Shown: one piece after another, positions 18,085-60,886 of the stretch | Layout: each line of letters starts with the position of its first letter | Numbering within the stretch: position 1 is the stretch's first letter | Source of the DNA: Escherichia coli | GTDB taxonomy: Bacteria > Pseudomonadota > Gammaproteobacteria > Enterobacterales > Enterobacteriaceae | Assembly (NCBI RefSeq): GCF_003334355.1 | Contig: NZ_QOWP01000008.1 | Length of the DNA: 64,000 nucleotides | Direction: 5' to 3' (one strand) | Position numbers and translations under genes: made by a program | Notes under the pieces: model-generated | Seen by the model: only the letters and a program-made list of their open reading frames with translations | Database searches by the model: none | What the model was told of the DNA's origin: nothing

Positions 18085-18252
18085 CCGATGAAGCGGCGGT
18101 AGAAGTGCCGCCGCAACAAAGACAAATGCCTGATACGCTTCGCTTATCAAGCCTGCGTATTGATTCATAATTTATTGAATTTGTAGGGTGATGAATCGCA
18201 TCCGGCAGGAAGGTAGGGTAACCTGAAATGGCGGTCTTCTCACTGCCGCCTT

Positions 18253-24335: not shown

Positions 24336-26670
<2,335 letters not shown>

Positions 26671-35243: not shown

Positions 35244-37008
<1,765 letters not shown>

Positions 37009-37320
37009 AGTAAATAGCTGACTTATGGATGTGCTGGGGATTCTATGTATTTAGCTGTGGCTTTACCATTACTTTTCCCGTTTTTGACTTAAATAGCAAT
37101 TTACCCGCCAATTCTTGCTGAACATCTATACTTTTTTTGTATTTTATGCGATTCATTGATTTCTGCTGTACGTGCAGGAAGGAATCGCAGAGCAACAGTG
37201 AAAGAATATGGTTGCTAATGATTATATTTGATTGATTTCTTTATTGAAAATCAACAATGTGCTTAAAAATCATTCGGGTCGGATTGCCGCGAAAGAAGTG
37301 ATACACTAGCGCGTCAATAT

Positions 37321-37370
37321 CAGTGCGGTATCAGTATTCAGGTAGCTGTTGAGCCTGGGGCGGTAGCGTG
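37321..37370 (+). promoter_or_regulatory. JUMPstart element with ops site (GGCGGTAGCGTG at 37359-37370), RfaH-dependent antitermination signal for the waaQ operon
   Basis: cagtgcggtatcagtattcaggtagctgttgagcctggggcggtagcgtg matches the JUMPstart/ops consensus, about 50 bp upstream of waaQ. Confidence 0.75.
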
Positions 37371-37419
37371 CTTTTTCTGCTTCACCTTAATCGGATAATC
37401 TCAACAAAAAGAGTTACTT

Positions 37420-38478
37420 GTGGATAAGCCATTTCGAAGAATTTTGCTCATTAAGATGCGTTTTCATGGGGATATGTTATTAACTACTCCCGTCATTAGT
37501 TCGCTGAAAAAAAATTACCCTGACGCAAAAATCGATGTGCTGCTTTATCAGGACACCATCCCGATCCTGTCTGAAAATCCAGAGATTAACGCGCTCTACG
37601 GCATAAAAAATAAAAAAGCAAAAGCCTCAGAAAAAATTGCCAACTTTTTTCATCTCATCAAGGTATTACGTGCCAATAAGTATGACCTTATCGTCAATCT
37701 TACCGATCAATGGATGGTTGCTATACTGGTTCGCTTATTAAATGCCCGTGTGAAAATTTCCCAGGATTATCATCATCGGCAGTCTGCTTTTTGGCGTAAA
37801 AGTTTCACCCATTTGGTGCCGTTGCAGGGTGGAAATGTGGTGGAAAGTAACTTATCCGTGCTGATACCATTGGGACTTGATTCGTTGGTGAAGCAGACAA
37901 CCATGAGTTACCCGCCTGCAAGCTGGAAACGTATGCGTCGCGAACTTGATCACGCTGGTGTTGGACAAAATTATGTGGTTATCCAACCTACGGCGCGGCA
38001 AATCTTCAAATGCTGGGACAACGCCAAGTTTTCCGCTGTGATTGATGCCTTACATGCTCGTGGTTATGAAGTCGTTCTGACGTCCGGCCCAGATAAAGAC
38101 GATCTGGCCTGCGTCAATGAAATTGCGCAGGGATGCCAGACGCCACCAGTAACGGCGCTGGCTGGAAAGGTGACCTTCCCGGAACTTGGTGCGTTAATCG
38201 ATCATGCGCAGCTGTTTATTGGCGTTGATTCCGCACCGGCGCATATTGCCGCTGCAGTTAATACGCCGCTGATATCGCTGTTTGGTGCGACAGACCATAT
38301 TTTCTGGCGTCCCTGGTCAAATAACATGATTCAATTCTGGGCGGGAGATTACCGGGAAATGCCAACGCGCGATCAGCGTGACCGAAATGAGATGTATCTT
38401 TCGGTTATTCCGGCGGCAGATGTCATTGCTGCTGTCGATAAATTACTGCCCTCCTCCACGACAGGTACGTCGTTATGA
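37420..38478 (+). CDS. waaQ: LPS heptosyltransferase III (GT9)
   Basis: ORF track 352 aa; start codon in the track is GTG at 37420 (exact start uncertain); RILLIKMRFHGDMLLTTPVISSLKK heptosyltransferase N-terminus. Confidence 0.8.
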   Translation: MDKPFRRILLIKMRFHGDMLLTTPVISSLKKNYPDAKIDVLLYQDTIPILSENPEINALYGIKNKKAKASEKIANFFHLIKVLRANKYDLIVNLTDQWMVAILVRLLNARVKISQDYHHRQSAFWRKSFTHLVPLQGGNVVESNLSVLIPLGLDSLVKQTTMSYPPASWKRMRRELDHAGVGQNYVVIQPTARQIFKCWDNAKFSAVIDALHARGYEVVLTSGPDKDDLACVNEIAQGCQTPPVTALAGKVTFPELGALIDHAQLFIGVDSAPAHIAAAVNTPLISLFGATDHIFWRPWSNNMIQFWAGDYREMPTRDQRDRNEMYLSVIPAADVIAAVDKLLPSSTTGTSL

Positions 38479-39599
38479 TCGTTGCTTTTTGTTTATATAA
38501 ATATTTTCCCTTTGGCGGTTTGCAGCGCGATTTTATGCGTATTGCTCAGACAGTCGCCGCCCGAGGTCATCATGTTCGGGTTTATACCCAGTCGTGGGAA
38601 GGCGAATGCCCTGATGTATTTGAACTGATCAAAGTACCGGTTAAATCGCATACCAATCACGGGCGCAATGCGGAGTATTTTGCCTGGGTGCAAAAACATT
38701 TACGCGAACATCCCGTCGATAAAGTCGTTGGATTCAACAAAATGCCGGGGCTGGACGTTTATTATGCCGCTGATGTTTGTTATGCCGAGAAAGTAGCGCA
38801 GGAGAAAGGCTTTTTCTATCGCCTGACGTCACGTTATCGCCATTATGCCGCCTTTGAGCGGGCAACCTTCGAACAGGGTAAGCCGACACAGCTGCTGATG
38901 CTGACAGATAAGCAAATCGCCGATTTCCAGAAACATTATCAGACTGAAGCGGAGCGTTTTCATATTCTGCCACCGGGGATTTATCCTGATCGTAAATATA
39001 GCCAGCAGCCAGCCAATAGCCGTGAAATCTTCCGTAAGAAGAATGGAATAACCGAACAACAATATTTATTGTTGCAGGTCGGTTCAGACTTCACGCGTAA
39101 AGGTGTCGATCGTTCCATTGAAGCACTTGCTTCGTTACCGGATTCGCTGCGCCACAACACATTGCTATATGTTGTTGGGCAGGATAAACCGCGAAAATTT
39201 GAGGCACTGGCAGAAAAACGCGGCGTGCGCAGTAATGTTCACTTCTTCTCGGGGCGCAACGATGTCTCGGAATTAATGGCGGCGGCGGATTTATTACTGC
39301 ATCCTGCCTACCAGGAAGCGGCGGGAATTGTGCTGCTGGAAGCGATTACTGCAGGATTACCGGTACTAACAACAGCCGTTTGTGGCTATGCGCATTATAT
39401 TGTCGAGGCCAATTGCGGCGAGGCTATTGTTGAGCCATTCCGCCAGGAAACATTGAATGAGATTTTACGCAAAGCGTTAACGCAATCTTCATTGCGCCAG
39501 GCCTGGGCGGAAAATGCGCGACATTATGCTGATACACAAGATTTATACAGTCTGCCAGAGAAAGCGGCGGATATCATAACGGGTGGTCTGGATGGTTGA
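38475..39599 (+). CDS. waaG: LPS core alpha-1,3-glucosyltransferase I (GT4), 374 aa
   Basis: 374 aa; [24 protein letters not shown]; 4-bp overlap with the waaQ stop. Confidence 0.85.
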
Positions 39600-40389
39600 A
39601 CTTAAAGAGCCGTTTGCCACGTTATGGCGCGGCAAAGATCCTTTTGAGGAAGTTAAAACCTTGCAGGGTGAGGTATTTCGTGAACTGGAAACTCGCCGTA
39701 CTCTGCGCTTTGAAATGGCGGGCAAAAGCTATTTTCTCAAATGGCATCGCGGCACGACCCTGAAAGAGATAATCAAAAATTTACTCTCATTGCGGATGCC
39801 AGTATTAGGCGCTGACCGCGAATGGAATGCGATTCATCGACTGCGGGATGTCGGCGTTGATACTATGTATGGGGTGGCATTTGGCGAAAAAGGCATGAAT
39901 CCGCTGACCAGAACTTCATTTATTATTACCGAAGATCTGACACCAACCATAAGTCTGGAAGATTACTGTGCTGACTGGGCGACTAACCCTCCAGATGTTC
40001 GCGTAAAGCGTATGCTTATTAAGCGTGTCGCGACGATGGTGCGCGATATGCATGCTGCGGGCATTAACCACCGTGACTGTTATATCTGTCATTTCCTGCT
40101 GCACTTGCCTTTTTCCGGTAAGGAAGAGGAGTTAAAAATTTCGGTAATTGACCTGCACCGGGCGCAGCTTCGCACGCGCGTTCCACGTCGTTGGCGGGAT
40201 AAAGATCTTATTGGGCTTTATTTTTCTTCGATGAATATCGACCTGACTCAGCGGGATATCTGGCGGTTTATGAAAGTGTATTTTGCCGCCCCGCTTAAAG
40301 ACATTCTCAAGCAGGAACAAGGACTGCTGTCGCAAGCAGAAGCAAAAGCCACAAAAATCAGGGAAAGAACGATTCGAAAATCGTTGTAA
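39592..40389 (+). CDS. waaP: LPS core heptose(I) kinase, 265 aa
   Basis: ORF 39583..40389; start [21 protein letters not shown]; kinase-like HRDCYICH motif. Confidence 0.85.
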
Positions 40390-40404
40390 TTTCCGGAGAG
40401 AAAT

Positions 40405-41421
40405 ATGAGTGCCCACTATTTTAATCCACAAGAGATGATCACTAAGACAATCATCTTCGATGAAAGGCCAGCGGCGTCAGTGGCATCATCATTCCATGTT
40501 GCTTATGGCATTGATAAAAACTTTCTTTTTGGTTGTGGTGTTTCAATCACGTCAGTTTTGTTACATAACAACGACGTGAGTTTTGTTTTCCACGTTTTTA
40601 TTGATGATATCCCTGAAGCCGATATCCAGCGTTTAGCCCAATTGGCGAAAAGCTATCGTACCTGTATCCAGATCCATCTGGTAAATTGTGAACGGCTTAA
40701 GGCATTACCGACGACCAAAAATTGGTCTATTGCCATGTATTTCCGTTTTGTAATTGCAGATTACTTTATTGATCAACAAGATAAGGTTCTTTACCTGGAT
40801 GCTGATATCGCCTGTCAGGGAAACTTAAAGCCGCTGATAACAATGGATCTTGCCAATAACATTGCTGCTGTTGTTACTGAACGCGATGCTAACTGGTGGT
40901 CGTTACGGGGTCAAAGTCTGCAGTGTAATGAACTTGAAAAGGGTTACTTTAATTCAGGTGTCCTGTTAATTAATACACTAGCGTGGGCGCAGGAGTCCGT
41001 TTCTGCTAAAGCGATGTCGATGCTTGCTGATAAAGCCGTCGTTTCCCGTTTAACCTATATGGATCAAGATATACTTAATCTTATCCTGTCAGGGAAAGTT
41101 AAATTCATTGATGCTAAATACAATACGCAATTTAGTTTAAATTATGAATTAAAAAAATCATTTGTTTGTCCAATTAATGATGAAACCGTATTAATTCATT
41201 ATGTCGGCCCGACAAAACCCTGGCATTACTGGGCCGGTTATCCAAGTGCGCGACCTTTTATCAAAGCCAAAGAGGCATCGCCCTGGAAAAATGAACCGTT
41301 AATGCGGCCAGTTAACTCAAACTATGCTCGTTATTGCGCCAAGCATAATTTTAAACAAAATAAACCAATTAACGGGATAATGAATTATATTTATTATTTT
41401 TATTTAAAGATAATAAAATGA
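40405..41421 (+). CDS. waaO: family-8 LPS alpha-1,3-glucosyltransferase (WaaO/WaaI type), 338 aa
   Basis: GT8 signatures (YGIDKNFLFG, LYLDADI, NSGVLLIN); first outer-core gene after waaP; symbol assigned by position in an R1/R4-type order. Confidence 0.65.
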   Translation: MSAHYFNPQEMITKTIIFDERPAASVASSFHVAYGIDKNFLFGCGVSITSVLLHNNDVSFVFHVFIDDIPEADIQRLAQLAKSYRTCIQIHLVNCERLKALPTTKNWSIAMYFRFVIADYFIDQQDKVLYLDADIACQGNLKPLITMDLANNIAAVVTERDANWWSLRGQSLQCNELEKGYFNSGVLLINTLAWAQESVSAKAMSMLADKAVVSRLTYMDQDILNLILSGKVKFIDAKYNTQFSLNYELKKSFVCPINDETVLIHYVGPTKPWHYWAGYPSARPFIKAKEASPWKNEPLMRPVNSNYARYCAKHNFKQNKPINGIMNYIYYFYLKIIK

Positions 41422-41437
41422 AATTGAGAAAAGTTAA

Positions 41438-42433
41438 ATGAATGAATTTATAAAAGAACGGTTTTCGTATTTAGCAGATAATAAAAAAGAAAACGCCCCA
41501 GAGCTAAATGTTTCCTACGGTATCGATAAGAATTTTTTGTATGGTGCTGGCGTTTCAATTTCTTCCGTTTTGATTAATAATTCAGATATTAATTTTGTCT
41601 TTCATGTTTTCACTGATTATGTGGATGATGATTATTTAAAGTCATTTAATGAAACAGCAAAACAATTTAATACCTCAATTATTGTATATTTAATTGACCC
41701 CAAATACTTTGCTGATCTGCCGACGTCACAGTTTTGGTCGTACGCGACATACTTCAGGGTATTGTCTTTTGAATATCTGAGTGAAAGTATTTCCACACTG
41801 CTGTATCTGGATGCCGATGTTGTTTGTAAAGGAAGCCTGAAACCTCTCACAGAAATTATATTTAAAGATGAGTTTGCTGCGGTCATTCCTGACAATGATA
41901 GTACGCAGGCGGCATGTGCAAAACGCCTCAACATTCCCGAAATGAATGGACGTTATTTCAATGCAGGCGTTATCTATGTCAATCTTAAAAAATGGCATGA
42001 AGCAAATTTGACACCGTATTTACTCAAGCTTTTACGAGGGGAAACTAAATATGGCTCTCTTAAATATTTAGATCAGGATGCGTTGAATATCGCATTTAAT
42101 ATGAATAATATCTACCTCGGGAAGGATTTTGATACTATTTATACCCTGAAAAATGAACTTCATGATCGTAGTCATCGAAAGTTTCAGCAAACCATTACCG
42201 ATAAAACAGTATTGATTCACTATACAGGGATAACTAAACCATGGCATAGCTGGGCTGGATATCCGTCTGCATCATACTTTAATATCGCGCGTGAACAATC
42301 TCCCTGGAAGAAATATCCTCTTAAAGAGGCGCGGACTGTTGCAGAAATGCAGAAACAATATAAGCATCTGTTTGCCCATGGTGAGTATATAAAAGGCATA
42401 ACTTCATTAATTAAGTACAAGCTTAAGAAATAA
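41438..42433 (+). CDS. waaT: family-8 LPS alpha-1,2-glycosyltransferase (WaaT/WaaJ type), 331 aa
   Basis: GT8 signatures (YGIDKNFLYG, LYLDADVVCKGSL, NAGVIYVN); paralogous to the ORF at 43161; symbol by position. Confidence 0.55.
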   Translation: MNEFIKERFSYLADNKKENAPELNVSYGIDKNFLYGAGVSISSVLINNSDINFVFHVFTDYVDDDYLKSFNETAKQFNTSIIVYLIDPKYFADLPTSQFWSYATYFRVLSFEYLSESISTLLYLDADVVCKGSLKPLTEIIFKDEFAAVIPDNDSTQAACAKRLNIPEMNGRYFNAGVIYVNLKKWHEANLTPYLLKLLRGETKYGSLKYLDQDALNIAFNMNNIYLGKDFDTIYTLKNELHDRSHRKFQQTITDKTVLIHYTGITKPWHSWAGYPSASYFNIAREQSPWKKYPLKEARTVAEMQKQYKHLFAHGEYIKGITSLIKYKLKK

Positions 42434-42442
42434 ATTACTCTT

Positions 42443-43135
42443 ATGATTACAAGTATACGTTATCGCGGCTTCTCATTTTATTACAAAGATAATGATAATA
42501 AATATAAAGAAATCTTTGATGAAATACTGGCCTATAATTTTAAAACAGTAAAAGTATTACGTAATATTGATGATACCAAAGTATCGTTGATTGATACGAA
42601 ATATGGTCGCTATGTTTTTAAAGTCTTTGCTCCGAAAACGAAAAGGAATGAACGTTTTTTAAAATCTTTTGTAAAAGGTGACTACTATCAGAATTTGATC
42701 GTTGAAACCGATCGTGTCAGAAGTGCAGGTCTTACTTTTCCTAATGATTTTTATTTTCTGGCTGAGCGTAAAATTTTCAACTATGCCAGTGTTTTTATCA
42801 TGCTTATCGAGTATGTCGAGGGCGTAGAGCTCAATGATATGCCGATTATTCCAGAAAATGTTAAAGCAGAAATTAAGGCTTCAATGGAAAAATTGCATGC
42901 CTTAAATATGCTATCGGGCGACCCACACCGGGGTAATTTTATCGTTAGTAAAGATGGTGTCAGGATAATTGACCTATCCGGTAAAAGCTGTACGGCAGAG
43001 CGTAAAGCTCGTGATCGTCTGGCCATGGAACGTCACCTGGGTATTGCCAACGAAATAAAAGATTATGGCTACTATTCAGTAATCTACAGAACCAAACTAC
43101 GCAAATTTATTAAAAAATTAAAAGGCAAAGCGTAA
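42443..43135 (+). CDS. waaY: LPS core heptose(II) kinase WaaY, 230 aa
   Basis: MITSIRYRGFSFYYKDNDNKYKEIFDEILAYNFKTVKVLRN; kinase-like, AT-rich. Confidence 0.75.
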   Translation: MITSIRYRGFSFYYKDNDNKYKEIFDEILAYNFKTVKVLRNIDDTKVSLIDTKYGRYVFKVFAPKTKRNERFLKSFVKGDYYQNLIVETDRVRSAGLTFPNDFYFLAERKIFNYASVFIMLIEYVEGVELNDMPIIPENVKAEIKASMEKLHALNMLSGDPHRGNFIVSKDGVRIIDLSGKSCTAERKARDRLAMERHLGIANEIKDYGYYSVIYRTKLRKFIKKLKGKA

Positions 43136-43160
43136 ACCACACAGTCAAAACGGAACCAAC

Positions 43161-44189
43161 ATGGATTTATTAGCTGAGAGTATTTCTGAAGTCGCTGTCT
43201 CTGGGGAAATTGCTAACACCGATCGTGTGTTAAATATCGCTTACGGTATTGACCGTAACTTTTTATTTGGTGCGGCAGTATCTATGCAATCAGTTGTTAT
43301 GCATAACCCGGACCTTGCGGTTAAGTTTCATCTCTTTACCGACTACATTGATGAAGATTATCTACAACGTGTTAATGCTTTTACCAGCAAAAATGCTAAC
43401 GTTGAAGTAAGAATTTATAAAGTCTCCAATGCCTTTATTGATATCTTCCCCAGCCTGAAACAGTGGTCTTATGCAACATTCTTCCGTTTAGTTGCGTTCC
43501 AGTATCTGAGTGAAACTATTGAAAATCTGTTATATATCGATGCTGATGTCATCTGTAAAGGCTCATTAGCTGGATTGCTTGATATTAATTTTGATGGGGA
43601 TAAGTTTGCAGCTGTTATTAAAGATGTGCCTTTTATGCAGGAAAAACCAGCGAAGCGTCTGGCTATAGAGGGACTTCCAGGGAATTATTTCAACGCCGGT
43701 GTAGTATATCTGCAGCTTGAAGCATGGGCGAAAAATGATTTTATGAATAAAGCCATTGCTATGCTGGCAAGTGACCCGCAGCACACGAAGTATAAATGCC
43801 TTGATCAGGATATTTTAAATATTCTGTTTTTTGGTCATTGTATTTTTATTAGCGGCGATTATGATTGCTTTTATGGCATCGATTATGAGTTAAAAAATAA
43901 AAGCGATGAAGATTATAAAAAGACCATTACCGATGATACTAAGCTGATTCATTATGTTGGCGTAACGAAGCCCTGGAACGACTGGACGAATTATCCCTGC
44001 CAGAACTATTTTAATGAGGCTTATCAGGCTTCTTGCTGGAATGATGTGGCGTTTATTCCAGCCACGAATGAAAAGCAGTATCAAGTGAAATCCAGACATT
44101 TGAAAAGAAATGGTAATATTGCATCTTCATTTTACTATTTCATGCTCTATTATAGTAAGAAAATAGCGCGTAAGCATTTTTCCAAATAA
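43161..44189 (+). CDS. waaW: family-8 LPS alpha-1,2-glycosyltransferase (WaaW/WaaR type), 342 aa
   Basis: GT8 signatures (YGIDRNFLFG, LYIDADVICKGSL, NAGVVYLQ); clear paralog of 41438..42433; symbol by position. Confidence 0.55.
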   Translation: MDLLAESISEVAVSGEIANTDRVLNIAYGIDRNFLFGAAVSMQSVVMHNPDLAVKFHLFTDYIDEDYLQRVNAFTSKNANVEVRIYKVSNAFIDIFPSLKQWSYATFFRLVAFQYLSETIENLLYIDADVICKGSLAGLLDINFDGDKFAAVIKDVPFMQEKPAKRLAIEGLPGNYFNAGVVYLQLEAWAKNDFMNKAIAMLASDPQHTKYKCLDQDILNILFFGHCIFISGDYDCFYGIDYELKNKSDEDYKKTITDDTKLIHYVGVTKPWNDWTNYPCQNYFNEAYQASCWNDVAFIPATNEKQYQVKSRHLKRNGNIASSFYYFMLYYSKKIARKHFSK

Positions 44190-44220
44190 TTATTAAGATT
44201 AATCATCCAGAGATTTTTTA

Positions 44221-44994
44221 ATGAACTTGCCCATTTATATTGTCTCACTTAAAAGAGATATTGAGCGAAGAAATAAAATAAATGATGTTTTTCATCGATT
44301 AAATATTAATTTTGATTTTTTTGATGCCATAGATGCTAAAGACCCTCAAAATAAAGAAATTATTGATAAAATGAGATTAAGTGGTGTCGGCGCAGAAATG
44401 ACTGATGGAGAAATTGCTTGTACATTAAGTCATCAACTTATATATCAGGATATGATAGATAAAAATATAGAATGGGCAGTCATTCTCGAGGATGATGTTA
44501 TCGTCAATGAGAAATTTAAAAAATTTCTGCAATATTTTAATCTTTCTGAAAAAGACAAGTTAAAACATAATAATTTGTATTTGCTTGGAGGACAGAAAGG
44601 ATTACATGATTATCCGGTATTGGGGCAAAGCCTTTTTAGTAAAGTTAAGGTAAGTACTTGTACTTTTCGGCGTGTTAATTTCAATAAAAATAAAATTCGG
44701 CGTACATGTTCATATTTGATGAATAAAGATATGGCACAAAAGTTGCTCAAATTGACAAAGGATTATGGCACCTATCGAGCTGATAGCTGGAAGTTAATGC
44801 ATCAACATAATATTATAAAAGAGTTTTATTTAGACGAAATAATATTACATCCTATTTTAAATGAGTTTAATAGTCATCTTGAAAGTGAAAGGCTATTAAC
44901 ATCGGAAAAAAAACAACCTAGAACAAGGCTTCAGAAAAGAATGAAGTTTATACGCTCCTGGATAAAGGTGGCTTTTTTTTCTCTTTTGAAATGA
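44221..44994 (+). CDS. family-25 LPS beta-glycosyltransferase (Lic2A/LgtB-like); candidate WaaX-type beta-1,4-galactosyltransferase, 257 aa
   Basis: N-terminal IYIVSLKRDIERR...FDFFDAIDAKDP and downstream ILEDDVIV resemble GT25 (Lic2A/LgtB) proteins; sits at the waaV/waaX position immediately before waaL. Confidence 0.55.
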   Translation: MNLPIYIVSLKRDIERRNKINDVFHRLNINFDFFDAIDAKDPQNKEIIDKMRLSGVGAEMTDGEIACTLSHQLIYQDMIDKNIEWAVILEDDVIVNEKFKKFLQYFNLSEKDKLKHNNLYLLGGQKGLHDYPVLGQSLFSKVKVSTCTFRRVNFNKNKIRRTCSYLMNKDMAQKLLKLTKDYGTYRADSWKLMHQHNIIKEFYLDEIILHPILNEFNSHLESERLLTSEKKQPRTRLQKRMKFIRSWIKVAFFSLLK

Positions 44995-45028
44995 GATTGT
45001 TAATTTCAATTTGTTGTGAGATATTAAC

Positions 45029-46282
45029 GTGGAAGTAAAAATTGAGCAATTTCGAAATAATAGCTGTAATTTTATTTTTTTATTGTATTTAATCGGTTTG
45101 TTGTTTGTGCCAATTGATCTTAATATCACCACTAAAATAATTAATGCGACAGGTGCATTTTCTCTTTTCTTATTAATTGTAAATAAAAAGCATAATTATA
45201 ATAAAAATGTCATTATATTAATTCTTGGTTTACTTCTTTTGGGTGCAATGAACCTGATATGGTATGAATTTTATAAAACAGAAGATGTAGTATATAGAAA
45301 TGCTTATCGAGGCTACCTTGAGTCTGGAAAACTATTAGTATTTAGCTCGTTGACATTTTTATTACTAAGTAAAAATAAATTCAGGCAAAATGAAAAACTA
45401 CATTTTATTTCAGCCATCTTAGTTCAAATAATCATGCTATGTAGAGCATATTATCAAGGGATATATTTGCATGCAGACCGCATTCCCCTCTCCGCCATGA
45501 ATGGGAATATTGGTCAAATGGGGGCAGCGACTATTGCGGCTTATGTGATTACATTCACCACTTTATATTCTTCAATTGTATTCATCAAAATGCAATCGAA
45601 ATATAAATGGTTTCTATTTTATGCTAACTTTGCTTTAAGTTTTGCTGCAGTAACAATGACTGGCACTAGGGCGGCGATTTTTACATTCCCACTAATGATT
45701 ATGGTTATTTTATTAATACAATATCGTAATCAGAGAGTGTTTTTATTTAAAGGATTGAGTGGTTTCTTTTTTTTATTTCTAGTATGCGGATTAATATTCA
45801 ATAAGGGAATTGAAAGACGGATCAACGCATTACAAACAGATGTGATTTCCTATACTACAAAAAATAATAGCAATTCATCAGTAGGTGCGCGGTTTGCTAT
45901 GGTTAATGCAGGTATTAAGGGTAGTCCCGATACTTTAGGATGGCAATCCCTTGAAGAGCGAGCCAAAAAGATAAAAGCTTTAAGTTTAGATAATAATATT
46001 TATAATAGTGTTCTTCCTTTTCTGGATGTACATATGCATAACGAAATTGTGGAATCTCTTTCCACGAAAGGAAAAATTGGTCTTCTTGTTCTTATTATGT
46101 TCTATGTTGCAATGATCTATTACTGTATCCGGGAGAAAAAATATATACTCTTGGTTTTCCCTGCTTCTATTATGTTATTTGGCATTAGTGATGTCATTAC
46201 ACATGCTAAACCAATACCGGCATCGTGGATTGTGTGCCTCTTCCTGTCTACATCGTTTTTGAGTAAAAAAGAACCACAATAA
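45029..46282 (+). CDS. waaL: O-antigen ligase, 417 aa polytopic membrane protein
   Basis: About 10-12 predicted TM helices, very AT-rich, last gene of the waaQ-direction operon; GTG start in track (exact start uncertain). Confidence 0.65.
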   Translation: MEVKIEQFRNNSCNFIFLLYLIGLLFVPIDLNITTKIINATGAFSLFLLIVNKKHNYNKNVIILILGLLLLGAMNLIWYEFYKTEDVVYRNAYRGYLESGKLLVFSSLTFLLLSKNKFRQNEKLHFISAILVQIIMLCRAYYQGIYLHADRIPLSAMNGNIGQMGAATIAAYVITFTTLYSSIVFIKMQSKYKWFLFYANFALSFAAVTMTGTRAAIFTFPLMIMVILLIQYRNQRVFLFKGLSGFFFLFLVCGLIFNKGIERRINALQTDVISYTTKNNSNSSVGARFAMVNAGIKGSPDTLGWQSLEERAKKIKALSLDNNIYNSVLPFLDVHMHNEIVESLSTKGKIGLLVLIMFYVAMIYYCIREKKYILLVFPASIMLFGISDVITHAKPIPASWIVCLFLSTSFLSKKEPQ

Positions 46283-46297
46283 TAAAAGCGTTGACTA

Positions 46298-46333
46298 AGT
46301 AAGTGGGTATAATACCCACTTACTATTTATTAA
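46298..46333. terminator. bidirectional terminator between convergent waaL and waaC
   Basis: perfect 13-bp inverted repeat agtaagtgggtat / atacccacttact (46298-46325) followed by T-rich tract. Confidence 0.6.
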
Positions 46334-48348: not shown

Positions 48349-49281
48349 TTATGCGTCGCGATTCAGCCAGGCCATGTATTCCGTTACACCTTCAGCAACG
48401 GTTTTGAACGGTTTGTCGTAACCCGCCGCGCGCAGATTCGTCAGATCTGCCTGAGTGAACGCCTGATAGCGGCCTTTCAGTTTATCCGGGAACGGAATGT
48501 ATTCGATCTGGCCTTTCTTGTGATAAGCCAGCGTAGCATCAGCTACAGCCTGGAAGGATTCCGCACGACCAGTACCGAGATTGAAGATGCCGGAAACGCC
48601 ATTTTCCAGGAACCACAGATTCACATCAGCCACGTCGCCCACATAGACGAAGTCGCGTTTGAAGTTCTCGCTACCTTCAAACAGCTTCGGTGATTCACCG
48701 TTGTTAAGCTGGGTGTTGAGATGGAAAGCGACGCTCGCCATGCTGCCTTTATGGCCTTCACGCGGTCCATAAACGTTGAAATAACGGAAGCCAACAATCT
48801 GCGAGTTCGCTTCAGGCAGGATTTGACGAACATATTCATCAAACAGGAATTTTGAGTAACCGTAGACGTTCAACGGTTTTTCGTACTCGCGGGATTCAAT
48901 AAAGTCGGAGGTGCGTCCGCCGTAGGTGGCCGCGGAAGATGCATACAGGAACGGGATTTCGCGCTCCAGACAGTAGTGCAGCAGCTCTTTGGAGTATTGA
49001 TAGTTGTTATCCATCATATACTTGCCATCCCACTCGGTGGTGGAAGAGCATGCGCCTTCGTGGAAAATCGCTTCGACATCGCCGAACTCTTCGCCAGCCA
49101 TAATCTGGATCAGGAAGTCTTCCTTATCCATATAGTCCGCGATATCCAGATCCACCAGGTTCACAAACTTGGTGCCGTCTTTCAGGTTGTCCACCACCAG
49201 AATATCGGTGATGCCTTTATCATTCAGGGCCTTAACGATGTTGCTGCCGATAAAGCCCGCGCCGCCGGTAACGATGATCAT
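48349..49281 (-). CDS. hldD: ADP-L-glycero-D-manno-heptose 6-epimerase, 310 aa
   Basis: [23 protein letters not shown] Rossmann NAD-binding motif; first gene of the hldD-waaF-waaC operon. Confidence 0.9.
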
Positions 49282-49494
49282 AACTGTAACCTTCGAATTA
49301 TGGAGTCAGAGACAATCTCAGACACGAATACTTCTATCATATCACTACACGGCGTTGGCTTCAGCCATTCGCCAAAAGTGAGATTGATGGACGTTATTTA
49401 TCCTGAATTTTGCAGAAGTGTTAACGCGTCATCTCGTCGCGACCTATAAGTTTGGGTAATATGTGCTGGAATTTGCCCTGTCTGGAGAATCGCA

Positions 49495-50691
49495 ATGCGT
49501 GGAGAATTTTATCAGCAGTTAACCAACGATCTGGAAACCGCACGGGCGGAAGGGTTGTTTAAAGAAGAGCGCATTATTACGTCTGCGCAGCAAGCAGATA
49601 TCACTGTGGCTGATGGAAGCCACGTCATTAACTTTTGTGCCAATAACTATCTCGGGCTGGCGAATCATCCGGATCTGATTGCGGCGGCAAAGGCGGGAAT
49701 GGATTCTCACGGTTTCGGCATGGCTTCGGTGCGTTTTATTTGCGGCACTCAGGACAGCCATAAAGAGCTTGAACAAAAACTGGCGGCATTCCTGGGGATG
49801 GAAGATGCGATTCTCTACTCTTCCTGCTTTGATGCTAACGGTGGCCTGTTTGAAACGCTGCTGGGCGCGGAAGACGCCATTATCTCCGACGCACTGAACC
49901 ACGCGTCTATTATTGATGGTGTGCGTCTGTGTAAAGCTAAACGCTATCGCTATGCCAACAACGATATGCAGGAGCTGGAAGCACGTCTGAAAGAAGCGCG
50001 TGAAGCCGGTGCGCATCATGTGTTGATTGCCACCGATGGTGTGTTCTCGATGGACGGCGTGATTGCCAATCTGAAGGGCGTTTGCGATCTGGCAGATAAA
50101 TACGATGCCCTGGTGATGGTAGACGACTCCCACGCGGTCGGTTTTGTCGGTGAAAATGGTCGTGGTTCCCATGAATACTGCGATGTGATGGACCGGGTCG
50201 ATATTATCACCGGTACGCTTGGTAAAGCGCTGGGCGGGGCTTCTGGTGGTTATACCGCGGCGCGCAAAGAAGTGGTTGAGTGGCTGCGCCAGCGTTCTCG
50301 TCCGTATCTGTTCTCCAACTCGCTGGCACCGGCCATTGTTGCCGCTTCTATCAAAGTGCTGGAGATGGTTGAAGCGGGTAGCGAGCTGCGTGACCGTCTG
50401 TGGGCGAACGCGCGTCAGTTCCGTGAGCAAATGTCGGCGGCGGGCTTTACCCTGGCGGGAGCCGATCATGCCATTATTCCGGTCATGCTTGGTGATGCGG
50501 TAGTGGCGCAGAAATTTGCCCGTGAGCTGCAAAAAGAGGGCATTTACGTCACCGGTTTCTTCTATCCGGTCGTTCCGAAAGGTCAGGCGCGTATTCGTAC
50601 CCAGATGTCTGCGGCGCATACCCCTGAGCAAATTACGCGTGCAGTAGAAGCATTCACGCGTATTGGTAAACAACTGGGCGTTATTGCCTGA
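49495..50691 (+). CDS. kbl: 2-amino-3-ketobutyrate CoA ligase (glycine C-acetyltransferase), 398 aa
   Basis: 398 aa PLP-dependent class-II aminotransferase-like; [28 protein letters not shown]. Confidence 0.9.
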
Positions 50692-50700
50692 GGATGTGAG

Positions 50701-51726
50701 ATGAAAGCGTTATCCAAACTGAAAGCGGAAGAGGGCATCTGGATGACCGACGTTCCTGTACCGGAACTCGGGCATAACGATCTGCTGATTAAAATCCGTA
50801 AAACAGCCATCTGCGGGACTGACGTTCACATCTATAACTGGGATGAGTGGTCGCAAAAAACCATCCCGGTGCCGATGGTCGTGGGCCATGAATATGTCGG
50901 TGAAGTGGTAGGTATTGGTCAGGAAGTGAAAGGCTTCAAGATTGGCGATCGCGTTTCTGGCGAAGGCCATATCACTTGCGGTCACTGTCGCAACTGTCGT
51001 GGCGGTCGTACCCATCTGTGCCGCAACACGATCGGCGTCGGCGTTAACCGTCCGGGCTGCTTCGCCGAATATCTGGTGATCCCGGCGTTCAACGCCTTCA
51101 AAATCCCAGACAATATCTCCGACGACCTGGCTTCCATTTTTGATCCCTTCGGTAACGCCGTGCATACCGCGCTGTCGTTCGATCTGGTTGGCGAGGATGT
51201 GCTGGTCTCTGGTGCAGGTCCGATAGGTATTATGGCTGCGGCGGTGGCGAAACACGTTGGTGCACGCAATGTGGTGATCACTGATGTTAATGAATATCGT
51301 CTCGAACTGGCGCGCAAAATGGGTATCACCCGTGCGGTCAACGTCGCTAAAGAAAACCTTAATGATGTGATGGCAGAACTGGGCATGACCGAAGGTTTTG
51401 ATGTCGGTCTGGAAATGTCCGGTGCGCCGCCAGCGTTTCGTACCATGCTTGACACCATGAACCACGGCGGCCGTATTGCGATGCTGGGTATTCCGCCGTC
51501 TGATATGTCTATCGACTGGACCAAAGTGATCTTTAAAGGCTTGTTCATTAAAGGTATTTACGGTCGTGAGATGTTTGAAACCTGGTACAAGATGGCGGCG
51601 CTGATTCAGTCTGGCCTCGATCTTTCGCCGATCATTACCCATCGTTTCTCTATCGATGATTTCCAGAAGGGCTTTGACGCTATGCGTTCGGGCCAGTCCG
51701 GGAAAGTTATTCTGAGCTGGGATTAA
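50701..51726 (+). CDS. tdh: L-threonine 3-dehydrogenase, 341 aa
   Basis: zinc-ADH family; [43 protein letters not shown]. Confidence 0.9.
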
Positions 51727-51734
51727 CACGAACA

Positions 51735-51757
51735 AGGGCTGGTATTCCAGCCCTTTT
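51735..51757 (+). terminator. rho-independent terminator of kbl-tdh
   Basis: agggctgg-tatt-ccagccct stem-loop followed by TTT, 8 bp after the tdh stop. Confidence 0.7.
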
Positions 51758-51964
51758 ATCTGAGGATAATCTGTTAAATATGTAAAATCCTGTCAGTGTA
51801 ATAAAGAGTTCGTAATTGTGCTGATCTCTTATATAGCTGCTCTCATTATCTCTCTACCCTGAAGTGACTCTCTCACCTGTAAAAATAATATCTCACAGGC
51901 TTAATAGTTTCTTAATACAAAGCCTGTAAAACGTCAGGATAACTTCAGAGGTCGTCGGTAATTT

Positions 51965-52999
51965 ATGATGAACAGCACCAATAAACTTAGTGTTATTATT
52001 CCGTTATATAATGCGGGCGATGATTTCCGCACTTGTATGGAATCTTTAATTACGCAAACCTGGACTGCTCTGGAAATCATTATTATTAACGATGGTTCAA
52101 CGGATAATTCTGTTGAAATAGCAAAGTATTACGCAGAAAACTATCCGCACGTTCGTTTGTTGCATCAGGCGAATGCTGGCGCATCGGTGGCGCGTAATCG
52201 TGGGATTGAAGTTGCAACGGGCAAATATGTCGCTTTTGTCGATGCTGACGATGAAGTCTATCCCACCATGTACGAAACGCTGATGACCATGGCGTTAGAG
52301 GACGACCTCGACGTGGCGCAGTGCAACGCTGACTGGTGTTTTCGTGAAACGGGAGAAACCTGGCAATCCATCCCCACCGATCGCCTTCGCTCAACCGGCG
52401 TCTTAACCGGCCCGGACTGGCTGCGGATGGGGCTTTCTTCGCGCCGTTGGACTCACGTTGTCTGGATGGGGGTTTATCGCCGTGATGTTATTGTTAAAAA
52501 TAACATTAAATTTATTGCCGGATTACATCATCAGGATATTGTCTGGACAACAGAATTCATGTTTAACGCGCTGCGTGCGCGATATACCGAGCAATCATTA
52601 TATAAATATTATCTGCATAATACGTCAGTGAGTCGGTTGCATAGACAAGGGAATAAAAACCTTAATTATCAACGTCACTATATTAAGATTACCCGCCTGC
52701 TGGAGAAATTAAATCGAAATTATGCCGACAAAATTATGATTTATCCGGAATTTCATCAGCAAATAACTTACGAGGCATTGCGTGTTTGCCATGCGGTGCG
52801 CAAAGAGCCGGATATTCTTACCCGCCAACGGATGATTGCCGAGATATTTACTTCCGGTATGTATAAGCGCCTGATTACCAATGTGCGCAGCGTGAAGGTC
52901 GGTTACCAGGCGTTACTGTGGTCTTTCCGCTTATGGCAATGGCGCGACAAAACGCGGTCGCACCATCGCATTACGCGTAGCGCCTTTAATTTGCGCTAG
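51965..52999 (+). CDS. waaH: family-2 glycosyltransferase (WaaH/YibB type, inner-core glucuronic acid transferase), 344 aa
   Basis: GT2 N-terminus KLSVIIPLYNAGDDF and DADDE motif; AT-rich upstream region. Confidence 0.7.
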   Translation: MMNSTNKLSVIIPLYNAGDDFRTCMESLITQTWTALEIIIINDGSTDNSVEIAKYYAENYPHVRLLHQANAGASVARNRGIEVATGKYVAFVDADDEVYPTMYETLMTMALEDDLDVAQCNADWCFRETGETWQSIPTDRLRSTGVLTGPDWLRMGLSSRRWTHVVWMGVYRRDVIVKNNIKFIAGLHHQDIVWTTEFMFNALRARYTEQSLYKYYLHNTSVSRLHRQGNKNLNYQRHYIKITRLLEKLNRNYADKIMIYPEFHQQITYEALRVCHAVRKEPDILTRQRMIAEIFTSGMYKRLITNVRSVKVGYQALLWSFRLWQWRDKTRSHHRITRSAFNLR

Positions 53000-53945
53000 C
53001 GTTAAACTTCGCCGCTTCGGGCTGTTTGCCCCAGCCTTGCCACTGATGCTGGAAGTAAACGATCAGCGTGCTCTGGCTGATGCTTTCGCTTAATACTTCA
53101 AAGAAGCGATTAGCATAAACAGGTTCTATCGGTTTCTTCGGTTTGCACAGCTTCACGCCACGGAACGGATTACGCGGTGCATCAGGCACAGCGTTTTTCG
53201 GCGGTGTAGAAGTATCAACCTGCGGTTCATTCAGCAAGCTGCTGGCTTTCACCAGCGTAATGTCTGGCGGCAGGTTATAAACCATCTGTTGTAGCACGCG
53301 TACCGTTGAAGGGTGAGGATGCCCAATGGCAATGGTTGAACCGTTGCGACGCGCCAGATCAATTGCGCGATTAAATTGCACACGGATGTCCGCTTCGTTC
53401 TGCGAATCGTCGAGGAACACCTTCCGTTTGATCACCTTCACGCCAGTACCTTGCGCGGCGCGCATCGCCTGGGTATTACCGATGGTTACGCTGTCGAGGA
53501 AGTAAAGATTGTAACGCTCCAGTGCCTGCATCACTTTCTGCATACCAAACAGGTTAGAGGTCATCTTGCTACCCATGTGGTTGTTGATCCCCACGGCATA
53601 GGGCACGTTATTGACCGCACTACGAATAATGCGCTCAATTTCGTCGCTGCTCATCTCCGGGCGCAGCGTATTTTTCTCCAGCGGCTGTTTACTCAGTGGT
53701 GCCATCGGGAGATGAATCAACACTTCGTGCCCGCTGTTATGCGCTTTGGTCGCCATCTCTCTGGCGTGCGGTGAATCGGGTAATACAGCGACGGAGATAG
53801 CGGAGGGCATCGCCAGCACCTGGTTTTCGTTGTGCGGGCGATACCCAAAATCATCAATGACGATGGCAAGTTTGCCAGCAAGTACGGGGGAGGAGAGCGC
53901 CAACAGAGCGGCAAATGCAAGAACGTTACGACGAAATGGAAACAA
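52986..53945 (-). CDS. yibQ: polysaccharide deacetylase-like divergent periplasmic protein YibQ, 319 aa
   Basis: 319 aa with signal peptide MFPFRRNVLAFAALLALSSPVLA; overlaps the waaH 3' end by 14 bp. Confidence 0.7.
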   Translation of the reverse strand: MFPFRRNVLAFAALLALSSPVLAGKLAIVIDDFGYRPHNENQVLAMPSAISVAVLPDSPHAREMATKAHNSGHEVLIHLPMAPLSKQPLEKNTLRPEMSSDEIERIIRSAVNNVPYAVGINNHMGSKMTSNLFGMQKVMQALERYNLYFLDSVTIGNTQAMRAAQGTGVKVIKRKVFLDDSQNEADIRVQFNRAIDLARRNGSTIAIGHPHPSTVRVLQQMVYNLPPDITLVKASSLLNEPQVDTSTPPKNAVPDAPRNPFRGVKLCKPKKPIEPVYANRFFEVLSESISQSTLIVYFQHQWQGWGKQPEAAKFNASAN

Positions 53946-53948
53946 AAC

Positions 53949-55208
53949 TTATCTTCCCAACCACGGCTGTGGATTGACCGCCTGACCCTGGCGGCGAATT
54001 TCGAAATAGAGTGAAGGCCGACCCTGACCGCCACTGCTGCCCACCAGTGCAATTGGCTGGCCCGCGCGAACCTGCGAACCAACGCTCACCAGTGCGCTCT
54101 GATTATAGCCGTAAAGACTCATGTCGCCTTTACCATGCTCAACCACCACCACCAGACCGTAGCCTTGCAGCCAGTCAGCCAGAATCACCCGACCGTCGGC
54201 AATCGCTTTAACTTCAGTACCTTCAGAGGCACCAATCACCATCCCTTTCCAGCGTAATTCACCCTGTAGCTGCTCGCCATAGCGATGCAGCGTCGGCCCG
54301 CGAACCGGCCAGAATGCCTGACCACGCGGCGCACCCAGGCCACCAGTTCGGGACATCAGCGATTTTTCGCTTTCGGTCGGTTTGTAGGTGGTGCCTTTGC
54401 GCGTCGCTTCTTTCTGGCGGTCGCGAACCGCCTGGGCCTCACGTGCTTCTCGTTCTGCACGCGCTTTCGCCGCGGCTTCCGCACGGGCAATGCTGTTACG
54501 CAGACGGGATTCGTTGGCACGCAGTTCACTTAGCTGCTGCTGACCTTGCTGGATGGAAGATTCCAGCCCCGCCAGCGTCTTTTTACGCTCATTCAGAGCC
54601 TGAGTCAGTTTCGCCTGTTGGGCGCGCTGTTCATATAACAGCGTTTGTTGCTCGCTTTGTTTCTCTTCCAGTTCAGCACGCTGCATGGCGACTTCTTCAC
54701 GCGTTTGCTTCAACTGGGCAATGGTTTCTTGTCGCGCCTGGTTGAGATAGCCGAAATAAGCCTGTAAACGCTGTCCACGCTGGCTTTCTTCACCGCTGAG
54801 AATCAGCTGAATACCGGTATGCTCGCCCTGACGGAATGCGGCATCCAGTTGTGCGGCGAGGCTGCGCTCCTGGGCGGCTTTTTGCTGCTCCAGTTTGGCA
54901 ATCGACGCGTTCATCTCATCAATCTGTTTATTGAGTTGATTGAGCGTGTTTTGCGTTTCGCGCAGCTTACGGGTGGCTTCAGAGATCGCTTCTTCCTGCT
55001 TTTTCAATTGTGCGAGCAGGCTTGCGCGTTGTTGTTGCTTTTGGCGTACCGCGCGCTCTTTCGCGGCGATATCGGCCTGAATAGATTTGAGTTGGTCACG
55101 CTCATCCGCATGGGCGGAAAAGGCGCACAACAATACGCCAGCGCTAAGAACGCTGGCGTAGATGATGGGCCTGATTGCAAACCTGCGCGGTTTCACGGCC
55201 CGTGTCAT
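53949..55208 (-). CDS. envC: murein hydrolase activator EnvC (coiled-coil plus LytM domain), 419 aa
   Basis: ORF 53949..55232; start MTRAVKPRRF; long Q/E/A-rich coiled coil then C-terminal peptidase M23-like domain. Confidence 0.85.
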   Translation of the reverse strand: MTRAVKPRRFAIRPIIYASVLSAGVLLCAFSAHADERDQLKSIQADIAAKERAVRQKQQQRASLLAQLKKQEEAISEATRKLRETQNTLNQLNKQIDEMNASIAKLEQQKAAQERSLAAQLDAAFRQGEHTGIQLILSGEESQRGQRLQAYFGYLNQARQETIAQLKQTREEVAMQRAELEEKQSEQQTLLYEQRAQQAKLTQALNERKKTLAGLESSIQQGQQQLSELRANESRLRNSIARAEAAAKARAEREAREAQAVRDRQKEATRKGTTYKPTESEKSLMSRTGGLGAPRGQAFWPVRGPTLHRYGEQLQGELRWKGMVIGASEGTEVKAIADGRVILADWLQGYGLVVVVEHGKGDMSLYGYNQSALVSVGSQVRAGQPIALVGSSGGQGRPSLYFEIRRQGQAVNPQPWLGR

Positions 55209-55241
55209 GGTATTAATCGCCTTTCCCCTCATGGGGAGGGA

Positions 55242-56786
55242 TTATTCCACGATGAACAGCGGCTTACCAGTCATCTCTTGCGGGATTTCCATACCCATCA
55301 GCGACAACATGGTCGGCGCGATGTCAGAAAGTTTGCCGCCTGCAACCGCTTTCACGTTCTTATCACCAACGTAAATCAGCGGAACTGGCAGGTTGGTGTG
55401 TGCCGTGTGTGCCTGACCCGTTGCCGGATCGCGCATCTGTTCAGCGTTACCGTGGTCAGCGGTGATCAGCAGTTGTCCACCCACGGACTCAACCGCTTTC
55501 GCGACTTCTTCCACGCAGTGATCCAGTGCTTCAACCGCTTTAACCGCCGCTTCCATCACCCCGGTGTGACCTACCATGTCACCGTTCGGATAGTTACAGA
55601 TAATGGTGTCGTATTTGCCGCTCTTGATGGCCGCAACCAGTTTTTCGGTCAGCTCTGCGGAGCTCATTTCCGGTTGCAGATCGTAGGTAGCCACTTTCGG
55701 TGAGTTGATCAGAATGCGATCTTCGCCTTTGAACGACTCTTCTACGCCACCGTTGAAGAAGAAAGTAACGTGGGCATATTTTTCGGTTTCGGAAATACGC
55801 AACTGAGTTTTGTCGTTTTTCGCCATCCACTCGCCGAAGGTGTTAACCAGGGAAGCGGGTGGGTAAGCAACCGCAGTTTTGATGTCAGCGGCGTATTCGG
55901 TCAGCATCACGAAATCGACGTTAACCACTTTCTTACGCGCGAAGCCGTCGAAATCTGCGTTTACGAATGCACGAGTGATTTCGCGCGCGCGGTCAGCACG
56001 GAAGTTCATGAAAATCAGCGCATCGCCGTCTTCCATTGCCGCATCTGGCTGACCTTCTGCACGAATAACGGTCGCTTTCACGAACTCGTCGTTTTCGTCG
56101 CGAGCATAAGCTGCCTGCAAACCAGCAACGGCAGTATCGGCCTGGAACTCACCCTGCGCCAGAGTCAGCAGGTCATAGGCTTTTTCAACGCGATCCCAAC
56201 GGTTATCGCGGTCCATCGCGTAGTAACGACCAATGATGGACGCTACGCGGCCTTTACCCAGCGCAGCAAATTTCTCTTCAAATTTTTTCAGCGAGGATTC
56301 AGCACTGCGCGGCGGGGTGTCGCGACCGTCAAGGAATGCGTGCAGGTAGATTTTTTCTGCGCCGCGTTCAGCTGCCAGTTCTACCATCGCCATGATGTGA
56401 TCTTCGTGGCTGTGTACGCCGCCTGCGGAGAGCAGACCCATAATGTGTACTGCTTTACCTGCGTTTTTCGCTTTATCTACCGCGCCAGTCAGCACTGGAT
56501 TAGCAAAGAAAGCGCGATCTTTGATTTCAACGTCCAGACGAGTCAGGTCCTGATACACGATGCGGCCGGCACCCAGGTTAACGTGGCCTACTTCGGAGTT
56601 ACCCATCTGACGGTCAGGCAGACCGACTTCCAGACCGGAAGCGTCGATCAGGGTATGCGGACGATTGGCCCACAGTGCATCCATTACCGGGGTTTTAGCA
56701 CTAAAAATGGCGTTATCCTGCTGTTCTTCACGATAGCCATAGCCATCCAGAATCACCAGTACCATAGGTTTTTTAGAAACCGACAT
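55242..56786 (-). CDS. gpmI: 2,3-bisphosphoglycerate-independent phosphoglycerate mutase, 514 aa
   Basis: ORF 55242..56930; start [19 protein letters not shown] (ATG 56784-56786). Confidence 0.9.
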
Positions 56787-57030
56787 TGCGACAACCTCAT
56801 ACTCAAGAGTCAAAATTTGCGTAATTTTACTACAGCTGAATCGATAAAATAGCCTCTGAAGATCAAAATATACGACCGCTCGCGGCAAGCCGATGCCAGA
56901 TTTGCGCTTTTTTTTCGTCGTGCCCCGCAAAATTGCATTCCAGTTAACGCGCTGGCTGTATTTGCCGCACCGCGCAGGTATACTCCTTTCCTGGTTTTTT
57001 TAATCACTACGTCGGGAGTTGTTACCCCCC

Positions 57031-57462
57031 ATGCAAGAAATTATGCAATTTGTTGGCCGTCATCCCATACTGAGTATCGCCTGGATCGCGTTACTGGTGG
57101 CGGTTCTTGTGACTACGTTTAAGAGCCTGACCTCGAAAGTGAAGGTGATTACTCGTGGTGAAGCTACGCGTCTGATCAACAAAGAAGACGCTGTGGTTGT
57201 GGATTTACGTCAGCGTGATGACTTCCGTAAAGGCCATATCGCAGGTTCTATCAATCTGTTGCCGAGCGAAATCAAAGCCAACAATGTTGGTGAGCTTGAG
57301 AAGCACAAAGACAAACCGGTTATCGTGGTAGACGGTTCTGGCATGCAGTGCCAGGAGCCTGCAAACGCACTGACGAAAGCTGGTTTTGCGCAAGTATTCG
57401 TGCTGAAAGAAGGCGTCGCTGGCTGGGCTGGCGAAAACTTGCCTTTGGTGCGCGGCAAATAA
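57031..57462 (+). CDS. yibN: rhodanese-domain inner membrane protein YibN, 143 aa
   Basis: ORF 57019..57462; start [15 protein letters not shown]; N-terminal TM helix then rhodanese-like domain. Confidence 0.75.
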
Positions 57463-57603
57463 TTTACCTGTCGTCTTTCATGATGCAGGCCGTTAGCTGC
57501 AATTAGGCCCCCAGCGACTTATTGTTATAAGCTTCTGGGGACACTCCATTTTGCAGCCGCCCTGCAACATGAAATTTCAGGGTAAAAAAACAGGAGCTAA
57601 ATT

Positions 57604-57855
57604 ATGGCCAATGTTGAAATCTATACCAAAGAAACCTGCCCGTATTGCCATCGTGCAAAAGCACTGCTGAGCAGCAAGGGCGTGAGTTTTCAGGAGTTGC
57701 CGATCGATGGCAATGCCGCCAAGCGTGAAGAGATGATCAAACGCAGCGGTCGCACCACGGTTCCCCAGATTTTTATTGACGCACAGCACATTGGCGGCTG
57801 TGATGACTTGTATGCATTGGATGCACGTGGTGGACTGGATCCCCTGCTGAAATAA
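57604..57855 (+). CDS. grxC: glutaredoxin 3, 83 aa
   Basis: [22 protein letters not shown] with CPYC active site. Confidence 0.92.
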
Positions 57856-57917
57856 CGTGTGAACGTTGGCATTACATTGCGCAGTATTTAAGGACAACAC
57901 TTAAGGGTTTTCTACAC

Positions 57918-58385
57918 ATGTCAGAACAAAACAACACCGAAATGACTTTCCAGATCCAACGTATTTATACCAAGGATATTTCTTTCGAAGCGCCGAACGC
58001 GCCGCACGTTTTCCAGAAAGATTGGCAGCCAGAAGTTAAACTTGATCTGGATACGGCATCTACTCAACTGGCAGATGACGTTTACGAAGTGGTACTGCGT
58101 GTTACCGTAACGGCCTCCCTGGGCGAAGAAACCGCGTTCCTGTGTGAAGTTCAGCAGGGCGGTATTTTCTCCATCGCGGGTATCGAAGGCACCCAGATGG
58201 CACATTGCCTGGGCGCATACTGCCCGAACATTCTGTTCCCGTATGCTCGTGAGTGCATCACCAGCATGGTATCCCGCGGTACATTCCCGCAACTGAACCT
58301 TGCGCCGGTTAACTTCGATGCGCTGTTCATGAACTATTTGCAGCAGCAGGCTGGCGAAGGTACTGAAGAACATCAGGATGCCTGA
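57918..58385 (+). CDS. secB: protein-export chaperone SecB, 155 aa
   Basis: [33 protein letters not shown]. Confidence 0.92.
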
Positions 58386-59404: not shown

Positions 59405-59483
59405 CCCCAGGGAACCTTTGTTACCGCTATGACCCGGCCCGCGCAGAACGGGCCGGTCATTATCTCATCGTGTGGAGTAAGCA

Positions 59484-60305: not shown

Positions 60306-60319
60306 TGTCCTGTGATCGT

Positions 60320-60348
60320 GCCGGATGCGATGTAATCATCTATCCGGC
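60320..60348. repeat. REP-like stem-loop between convergent cysE and trmL
   Basis: gccggat ... atccggc inverted repeat with a 15-nt loop. Confidence 0.4.
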
Positions 60349-60357
60349 ATACAGTAA

Positions 60358-60831: not shown

Positions 60832-60886
60832 ACTGCCCCCTTAGTGCGGGGGCAGGATAGCAGAAAATTGGTGAGCAGTGCGGCCT

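Follow-up and report, generated by a model that had tools for sequence, protein, structure and literature searches.

The 64,000-nt stretch of Escherichia coli DNA analysed here (the window) carries an ops motif in front of its LPS core operon, and this raises the question of whether the motif loads RfaH for transcription of the whole operon, up to the O-antigen ligase gene waaL at its far end. The explanation that we consider very probable is that a canonical waaQ JUMPstart/ops element loads RfaH for transcription through to waaL. The first 49 kb of the window are 99.96-99.98% identical to E. coli strain PSS-12. Over the last 15 kb (49031-64000), naive position-by-position identity to PSS-12 falls to 65%, probably due to an indel that shifts the register.

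The core locus is of the R4 type, with the gene order waaQ-G-P-O-T-Y-W-X-L at 37420-46282. In-silico PCR with published outer-core typing primers gave only the R4 product, of exactly 380 bp, at 44030-44409 (PMC13293308). All nine genes run on the plus strand, the gaps between them measure -8 to +34 bp, and together they form a long multi-gene operon downstream of a single ops. The first is waaQ (37420-38478, GTG start), which encodes heptosyltransferase III (NCBIfam NF007742 RfaQ, 712 bits). The PGAP start at GTG 37420 gives a protein that spans positions 1-351 of 352 in the RfaQ profile, and the MG1655 waaQ start is an ATG equivalent to 37456, 12 codons downstream. It is followed, after a 4-nt overlap, by waaG (38475-39599; GT4 glucosyltransferase I, PSS-12 annotation), and then by waaP (39592-40389, with the PSS-12 start; heptose I kinase, NCBIfam NF011703, 479 bits) and waaO (40405-41421; α-1,3-galactosyl/glucosyltransferase of family GT8, NCBIfam NF011718, 612 bits). 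The waaT position is occupied by a GT8 transferase gene (41438-42433), named from its cluster and 98.3% identical to its CFT073 counterpart. The heptose II kinase gene waaY (42443-43135; NCBIfam NF007684, 401 bits) precedes three genes that are likewise identified by cluster names, namely waaW (43161-44189; GT8 α-1,2-galactosyltransferase, with the R1/R4 typing primer site at 44030-44049), the R4-specific waaX (44221-44994; GT25 β-1,4-galactosyltransferase, with the R4-F primer site at 44391-44409) and, after a gap of 34 bp, the R4 allele of the O-antigen ligase gene waaL (45029-46282; GC 0.32), which is last in the operon. The GC content is ~0.47-0.48 over waaQGP and drops to 0.30-0.38 in the stretch that begins with waaO and ends with waaL.

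Between the convergent waaL and waaC genes lies a perfect 12-bp palindromic hairpin (46298-46324; -18.3 kcal/mol, z = -5.3), which is terminator-like and likely marks the end of the waaQ-waaL unit. Its U-tract is weak on either strand. The R4-specific tail, made up of waaX, waaL and the following spacer (44190-46329), occurs in 691-693 members of a set of 5,426 complete E. coli genomes. Three matches to the waaX-waaL cassette in this genome collection fall in records classed as plasmids.

The ops element GGCGGTAGCGTG is located at 37359-37370 on the plus strand as an exact 12-nt match, and is the only copy in the 64-kb window, where ~0.009 exact copies would be expected on both strands from base composition. 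It conforms to the definition GGCGGTAGnnTG, with core bases 3-8 intact and TG at positions 11-12 (for the requirement and role of each base see PMC5995543), and it agrees with the consensus pause at each of G-10, Y-1 and G+1. The pause is predicted to fall on U11, at 37369. The motif forms the 3' end of a 39-nt JUMPstart element (37332-37370, plus strand) that matches Rfam family RF01707 over model positions 1-38 of 38 at 55.2 bits, the gathering threshold being 35 bits, with E = 1.5e-11 in a 1.5-kb search and 6.4e-10 in a search of the entire window; this was the only RF01707 match in the 64 kb. In agreement with the Rfam consensus structure, a stem-loop with a 5-bp stem (CAGGU/GCCUG, 37339-37343 with 37353-37357) and a 9-nt loop is present directly 5' of ops, and no non-standard pairs were flagged in it. 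The motif lies in the untranslated leader, on the non-template strand and 49 nt upstream of GTG 37420, and the JUMPstart element thus occupies the 5' UTR of polysaccharide-synthesis genes, here those of the LPS core. The rfaH gene itself is outside the window; it is annotated at 2822568-2823056 in the near-identical PSS-12, by way of which its presence in the genome is accepted. Strand, position and sequence all fit, and so support, a predicted RfaH loading site before waaQ.

The earlier note on this DNA, made from the sequence alone, had described an exact ops motif inside a JUMPstart-like sequence, and both the motif and the full-length RF01707 match bear this out. The 50-nt span that it gave, 37321-37370, does contain the element but opens with a CAGTGC box, 11 nt ahead of the curated start at 37332. 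It had also proposed an alignment with other ops leaders, including rfb, and this was borne out for the K-12 rfb (O-antigen) leader, whose JUMPstart belongs to RF01707 as well (60.0 bits) and has an identical ops and the same GGGG spacer. The two JUMPstart elements also share the GGUAGCUG segment, which comprises the 5' arm and the loop. They differ in the second stem pair, which is A-U in waaQ and U-A in rfb; in the CAGTGC box, which abuts the stem in rfb and is separated from it by 11 extra nt in waaQ; and in a T-run after ops, which only waaQ has. In literature descriptions of hly, kps and tra, the leader likewise carries a 12-nt non-template ops with TG at positions 11-12 that recruits RfaH (PMC5995543, PMC9765446), although in hly it lies ~600 nt from the first gene, as compared with 49 nt here (PMC9765446, PMC6775461).

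The closest relatives of the element are the waaQ leaders of other E. coli. In K-12, the waaQ (rfaQ) leader has a 39-nt JUMPstart, ops included, that is identical to that of the window, the same -10 promoter, the same distance to waaQ and the same divergent waaA. Compared along the window, the K-12 intergenic region is a mosaic, with identities of 100% for 37009-37097 beside waaA, 54.5% for 37098-37262 in the middle, 92.6% for 37263-37370, from the promoter to ops, and 65% for 37371-37419 past ops. The K-12 waaQGP genes are 70-80% identical to those of the window at the DNA level, the outer-core genes differ, and K-12 waaL is on the opposite strand, outside the waaQ operon, whereas in the window waaL closes the unit. 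The rfa locus of CFT073 (R1 core) is much nearer: identity is 100% over the leader (37314-37419), 98.5% over the intergenic region and 97-99% over the genes waaQ to waaW, and the same nine-gene architecture ends in the ligase gene. From the last ~70 nt of waaW up to waaC, CFT073 has no match to the window; it carries waaV (GT2) and the R1 ligase in place of waaX (GT25) and the R4 ligase. The DNA identity of waaQ, waaG and waaP is thus 70-80% to K-12 as against 97-99% to CFT073, which indicates two deep allele classes for these inner-core genes as well, although they are supposed to be conserved.

Of the 5,426 complete E. coli genomes, 4,908, K-12 among them, carry an identical 39-nt JUMPstart, and a further 496 have one that differs by a single mismatch. 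The 39-mer gave no megablast match in 23 genomes. The waaA-waaQ intergenic region was found in 5,425 of the 5,426 genomes, with at least 95% identity in 4,469 and 60-80% identity in 936 (~17%), the latter being the divergent K-12-like allele, and the JUMPstart is invariant despite that divergence. One match to the intergenic region with its JUMPstart is in a record classed as a plasmid. In other Enterobacterales species, 72 waaQ loci were compared, and in 46 of them ops lies at a distance of 37-52 nt upstream of the gene. No ops was found within 500 nt of waaQ in Providencia, Arsenophonus, Moellerella, Brenneria, Siccibacter, Superficieibacter and Candidatus Hartigia, nor in one Kluyvera locus, one metagenome assembly and a 94-nt fragment. 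Both Brenneria loci have GGCGGTAG ~1.46 kb upstream of waaQ. The window carries the canonical JUMPstart/ops of the waaQ (rfaQ) operon for the LPS core of E. coli, an element that is real, essentially invariant in the species and ordinary; it is a textbook feature, already known, with a sequence identical to that of experimentally characterised copies.

The gap between waaA (Kdo transferase; 35731-37008, minus strand, an ORF annotated as waaA in PSS-12) and waaQ is 411 bp, as the earlier note had given it, for a waaA start at 37008 and the waaQ GTG at 37420; it becomes 447 bp if the MG1655-style ATG at 37456 is taken as the waaQ start. This region is the shared divergent control region of the two genes, and the description of it as a long waaQ leader did not hold, the transcribed part being much shorter. 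A putative extended -10 element, TGaTACACT (37299-37307, plus strand), ends 7 nt before 37314, and TGnTACACT hardly varies among the waaQ leaders of other Enterobacteriaceae. This conservation, together with homology to the K-12 rirA/waaQ start, points to a transcription start at ~37314. The leader would then be only ~106 nt long (37314-37419), with ops at +46 to +57.

Within this predicted leader, the CAGTGC box that is conserved in waaQ leaders and the 11 extra nt occupy 37321-37331 (plus strand), and the direct repeat TATCAGT occurs with a period of 11 at 37318-37324 and 37329-37335. At the position of the extra nucleotides and the direct repeat, a Leminorella locus has a second ops-like motif, GGCGGTAGCGTT. 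The remainder of the leader (37371-37419, plus strand) includes a T-run at 37372-37376 and shows no significant fold (z = +0.43). The T-run is kept in most waaQ leaders across genera and is missing in the K-12 rfb leader. There is no strong Shine-Dalgarno sequence before waaQ, only AAGAG.

On the reading that we prefer, transcription would begin at ~37314 from the conserved extended -10 promoter, and RNA polymerase would pause at ops with U11 (37369) as the pause nucleotide. The exposed non-template strand would fold into a small hairpin, closed by C3:G8, in which G5 and T6 are offered to RfaH, as described for ops bases 3-8 (PMC5995543, PMC11001881). RfaH is then expected to load, to exclude NusG, to suppress pausing and Rho/H-NS-dependent termination and to help bring ribosomes to genes with weak ribosome-binding sites, in keeping with published work, in which loaded RfaH stays with RNA polymerase, NusG is excluded, pausing and Rho/H-NS termination are suppressed and ribosomes are recruited (PMC9765446, PMC6358824). 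The RfaH-modified polymerase would cross the AT-rich distal genes (GC 0.30-0.38) and reach the end of waaL at 46282. In CFT073, ChIP-seq revealed an RfaH signal that spans the rfa unit downstream of its single ops and travels with RNAP; without rfaH, RNAP occupancy declines distally in rfa, and the RfaH-dependent RNAP travelling ratio is from 0.1 or less to 0.34 for wzx, kps and rfa (PMC9765446).

The earlier note had assigned the whole waaQ operon, including a strain-specific outer-core cassette and waaL, to one RfaH-antiterminated unit. The motif, its strand and position and the 100% identity of the leader to that of CFT073 support this assignment, with a weaker, predicted status for the waaX-waaL part. 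These two genes would depend on RfaH because they are co-oriented with the rest of the operon, lie behind gaps of 31-34 bp, in a distal part with gaps of 9-34 bp, have a very low GC content and are preceded by no second ops. The dependence is an expectation, as the segment is absent from K-12 and CFT073, the two strains studied by experiment, and promoter-like matches exist inside the operon, among them sites near 44546 and 45114, numbering 23 as compared with 29.2 in shuffled sequence. Relative to R1, the term strain-specific applies only to the last ~2.2 kb, that is, to the 3' end of waaW, waaX and waaL. Since the ligase gene of R1 and R4 loci lies downstream of ops in one unit, ligase expression, in addition to core synthesis, is expected to be RfaH-dependent. 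The R4-core strain thus carries a standard RfaH control module and current understanding is unchanged; the position of the ligase gene helps with annotation and with predictions of the phenotypes of rfaH mutants, and is not a discovery.

The leader also overlaps a small RNA, a match that the earlier note had missed while reading the JUMPstart/ops correctly. Over its first ~72 nt (37314-37385, plus strand), the waaQ leader corresponds to K-12 RirA (b4760), and 67 of 73 positions are identical to the MG1655 rirA annotation, a 73-nt ncRNA immediately upstream of waaQ; the homology includes ops. According to reviews, rirA and waaQ mRNA start at one common site (PMC8745692), and RirA includes JUMPstart and ops (PMC8745692, PMC5736990). 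RirA is reported to be an RNA of ~73 nt that binds RfaH together with RNAP, and is described for K-12 only (PMC6358824). By analogy, the first ~72 nt of the transcript in the window would be a RirA counterpart, the K-12 RNA dampening RfaH activity through its binding to RfaH and RNAP.

It is conceivable, though on balance unlikely, that the conserved block mainly encodes a trans-acting RirA that serves as an RfaH decoy, with RfaH loading in cis being secondary. Besides the 67/73 match of 37314-37385, this would explain why the ops flanks that are specific to waaQ, the upstream box and the T-run, are kept across genera and are absent from the K-12 rfb leader, and overexpression of RirA mimics deletion of rfaH in a manner that requires ops (PMC6358824, PMC5736990). 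The reported effects of RirA are, however, overexpression phenotypes, and ChIP shows RfaH loading in cis at the same ops on an identical leader (PMC9765446). Moreover, the RirA-sized RNA folds no better than shuffled sequence (z = -0.46), and no intrinsic terminator was predicted at its 3' end. The T-run at 37372-37376 may be linked to formation of this 3' end. The decoy and cis-loading roles are not mutually exclusive.

Somewhat less probable still is a role of JUMPstart as a structured RNA, such as a hairpin in the exit channel that would lengthen the pause at ops, in addition to its being a DNA signal. The stem pairs covary: the second pair, A-U in waaQ, is reversed to U-A in the rfb copy of K-12, and other genera have G.U or G-C; G.U wobbles favour pairing in RNA over pairing in DNA. 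The 3' end of the stem (37357) and the pause nucleotide (37369) are 12 nt apart, a distance close to the spacing of hairpin-stabilised pauses. A conserved stem-loop was also found by Weinberg et al. (PMC2864571). These points are offset by the biochemistry of ops, the pause at which is described as distinct from hairpin-stabilised pauses, and by the reconstitution of RfaH recruitment on scaffolds that lack upstream RNA (PMC11001881, PMC5995543). Across 38 waaQ leaders, helix 3, which consists of the Rfam stem and one outer pair, is 94% paired, with A-U, G.U and G-C all seen at one position, but two-sided pair changes are rare in this set (6 cells), and an extended three-helix fold of the same 38 sequences has 90.7% of cells paired as compared with 90.0% in shuffles. 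The whole leader is no more stable than shuffled sequence (fold z = +0.43), and any role of JUMPstart at the RNA level therefore rests on the 5-bp stem with its limited covariation.

An improbable elaboration of both ideas is that, in waaQ leaders specifically, the conserved upstream box (37322-37335) pairs with the RNA of ops so as to enclose the JUMPstart stem and, together with the conserved U-run just past ops, would form a terminator-like fold that acts as a feedback attenuator: polymerases that fail to load RfaH would release RirA, which would titrate RfaH. In a related form, the JUMPstart stem 12 nt behind U11 would be an exit-channel pause hairpin. If so, the waaQ ops site would be a decision point rather than a simple loading site. 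The three-helix fold in which the upstream box is paired with the ops RNA was rejected, as the values of 90.7 and 90.0% give no convincing sign of covariation outside the Rfam stem. That the waaQ leader RNA serves as an attenuator or a decoy is an unproven possibility, and loading of RfaH in cis by the waaQ JUMPstart/ops is retained as the main reading.

That an ops-like motif arose here by chance, or is a generic pause site with no role for RfaH, is scarcely credible: although GGCGGTAG is present five times in the window and sites of this kind within genes recruit no RfaH (PMC9765446), only ~0.009 exact 12-mers are expected, the JUMPstart context has E = 6.4e-10, the element keeps its distance from waaQ and is conserved in 5,403 E. 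coli genomes as well as in 46 other loci, and the leader is identical to the CFT073 leader bound by RfaH, so that expected frequency and conservation effectively rule out a chance occurrence.

The five GGCGGTAG 8-mers compare with 1.5 expected in the window. Only the ops copy lies between waaA and waaC, and there is no other between 26458 and 63070. The remaining four are on the sense strand of yicN (3168-3175), in a hairpin after gltS (18095-18102), antisense in yicG (26458-26465) and on the sense strand of lldP (63070-63077). They were rejected as RfaH sites, since they have no JUMPstart and no TG at positions 11-12 and none is in an untranslated leader.

Elsewhere in the window, the tRNA-Sec gene selC (9232-9322, minus strand) adjoins a degraded pseudogene fragment of the rhuM family (8988-9149, PSS-12 annotation), which may be what is left of an island that had inserted at selC.
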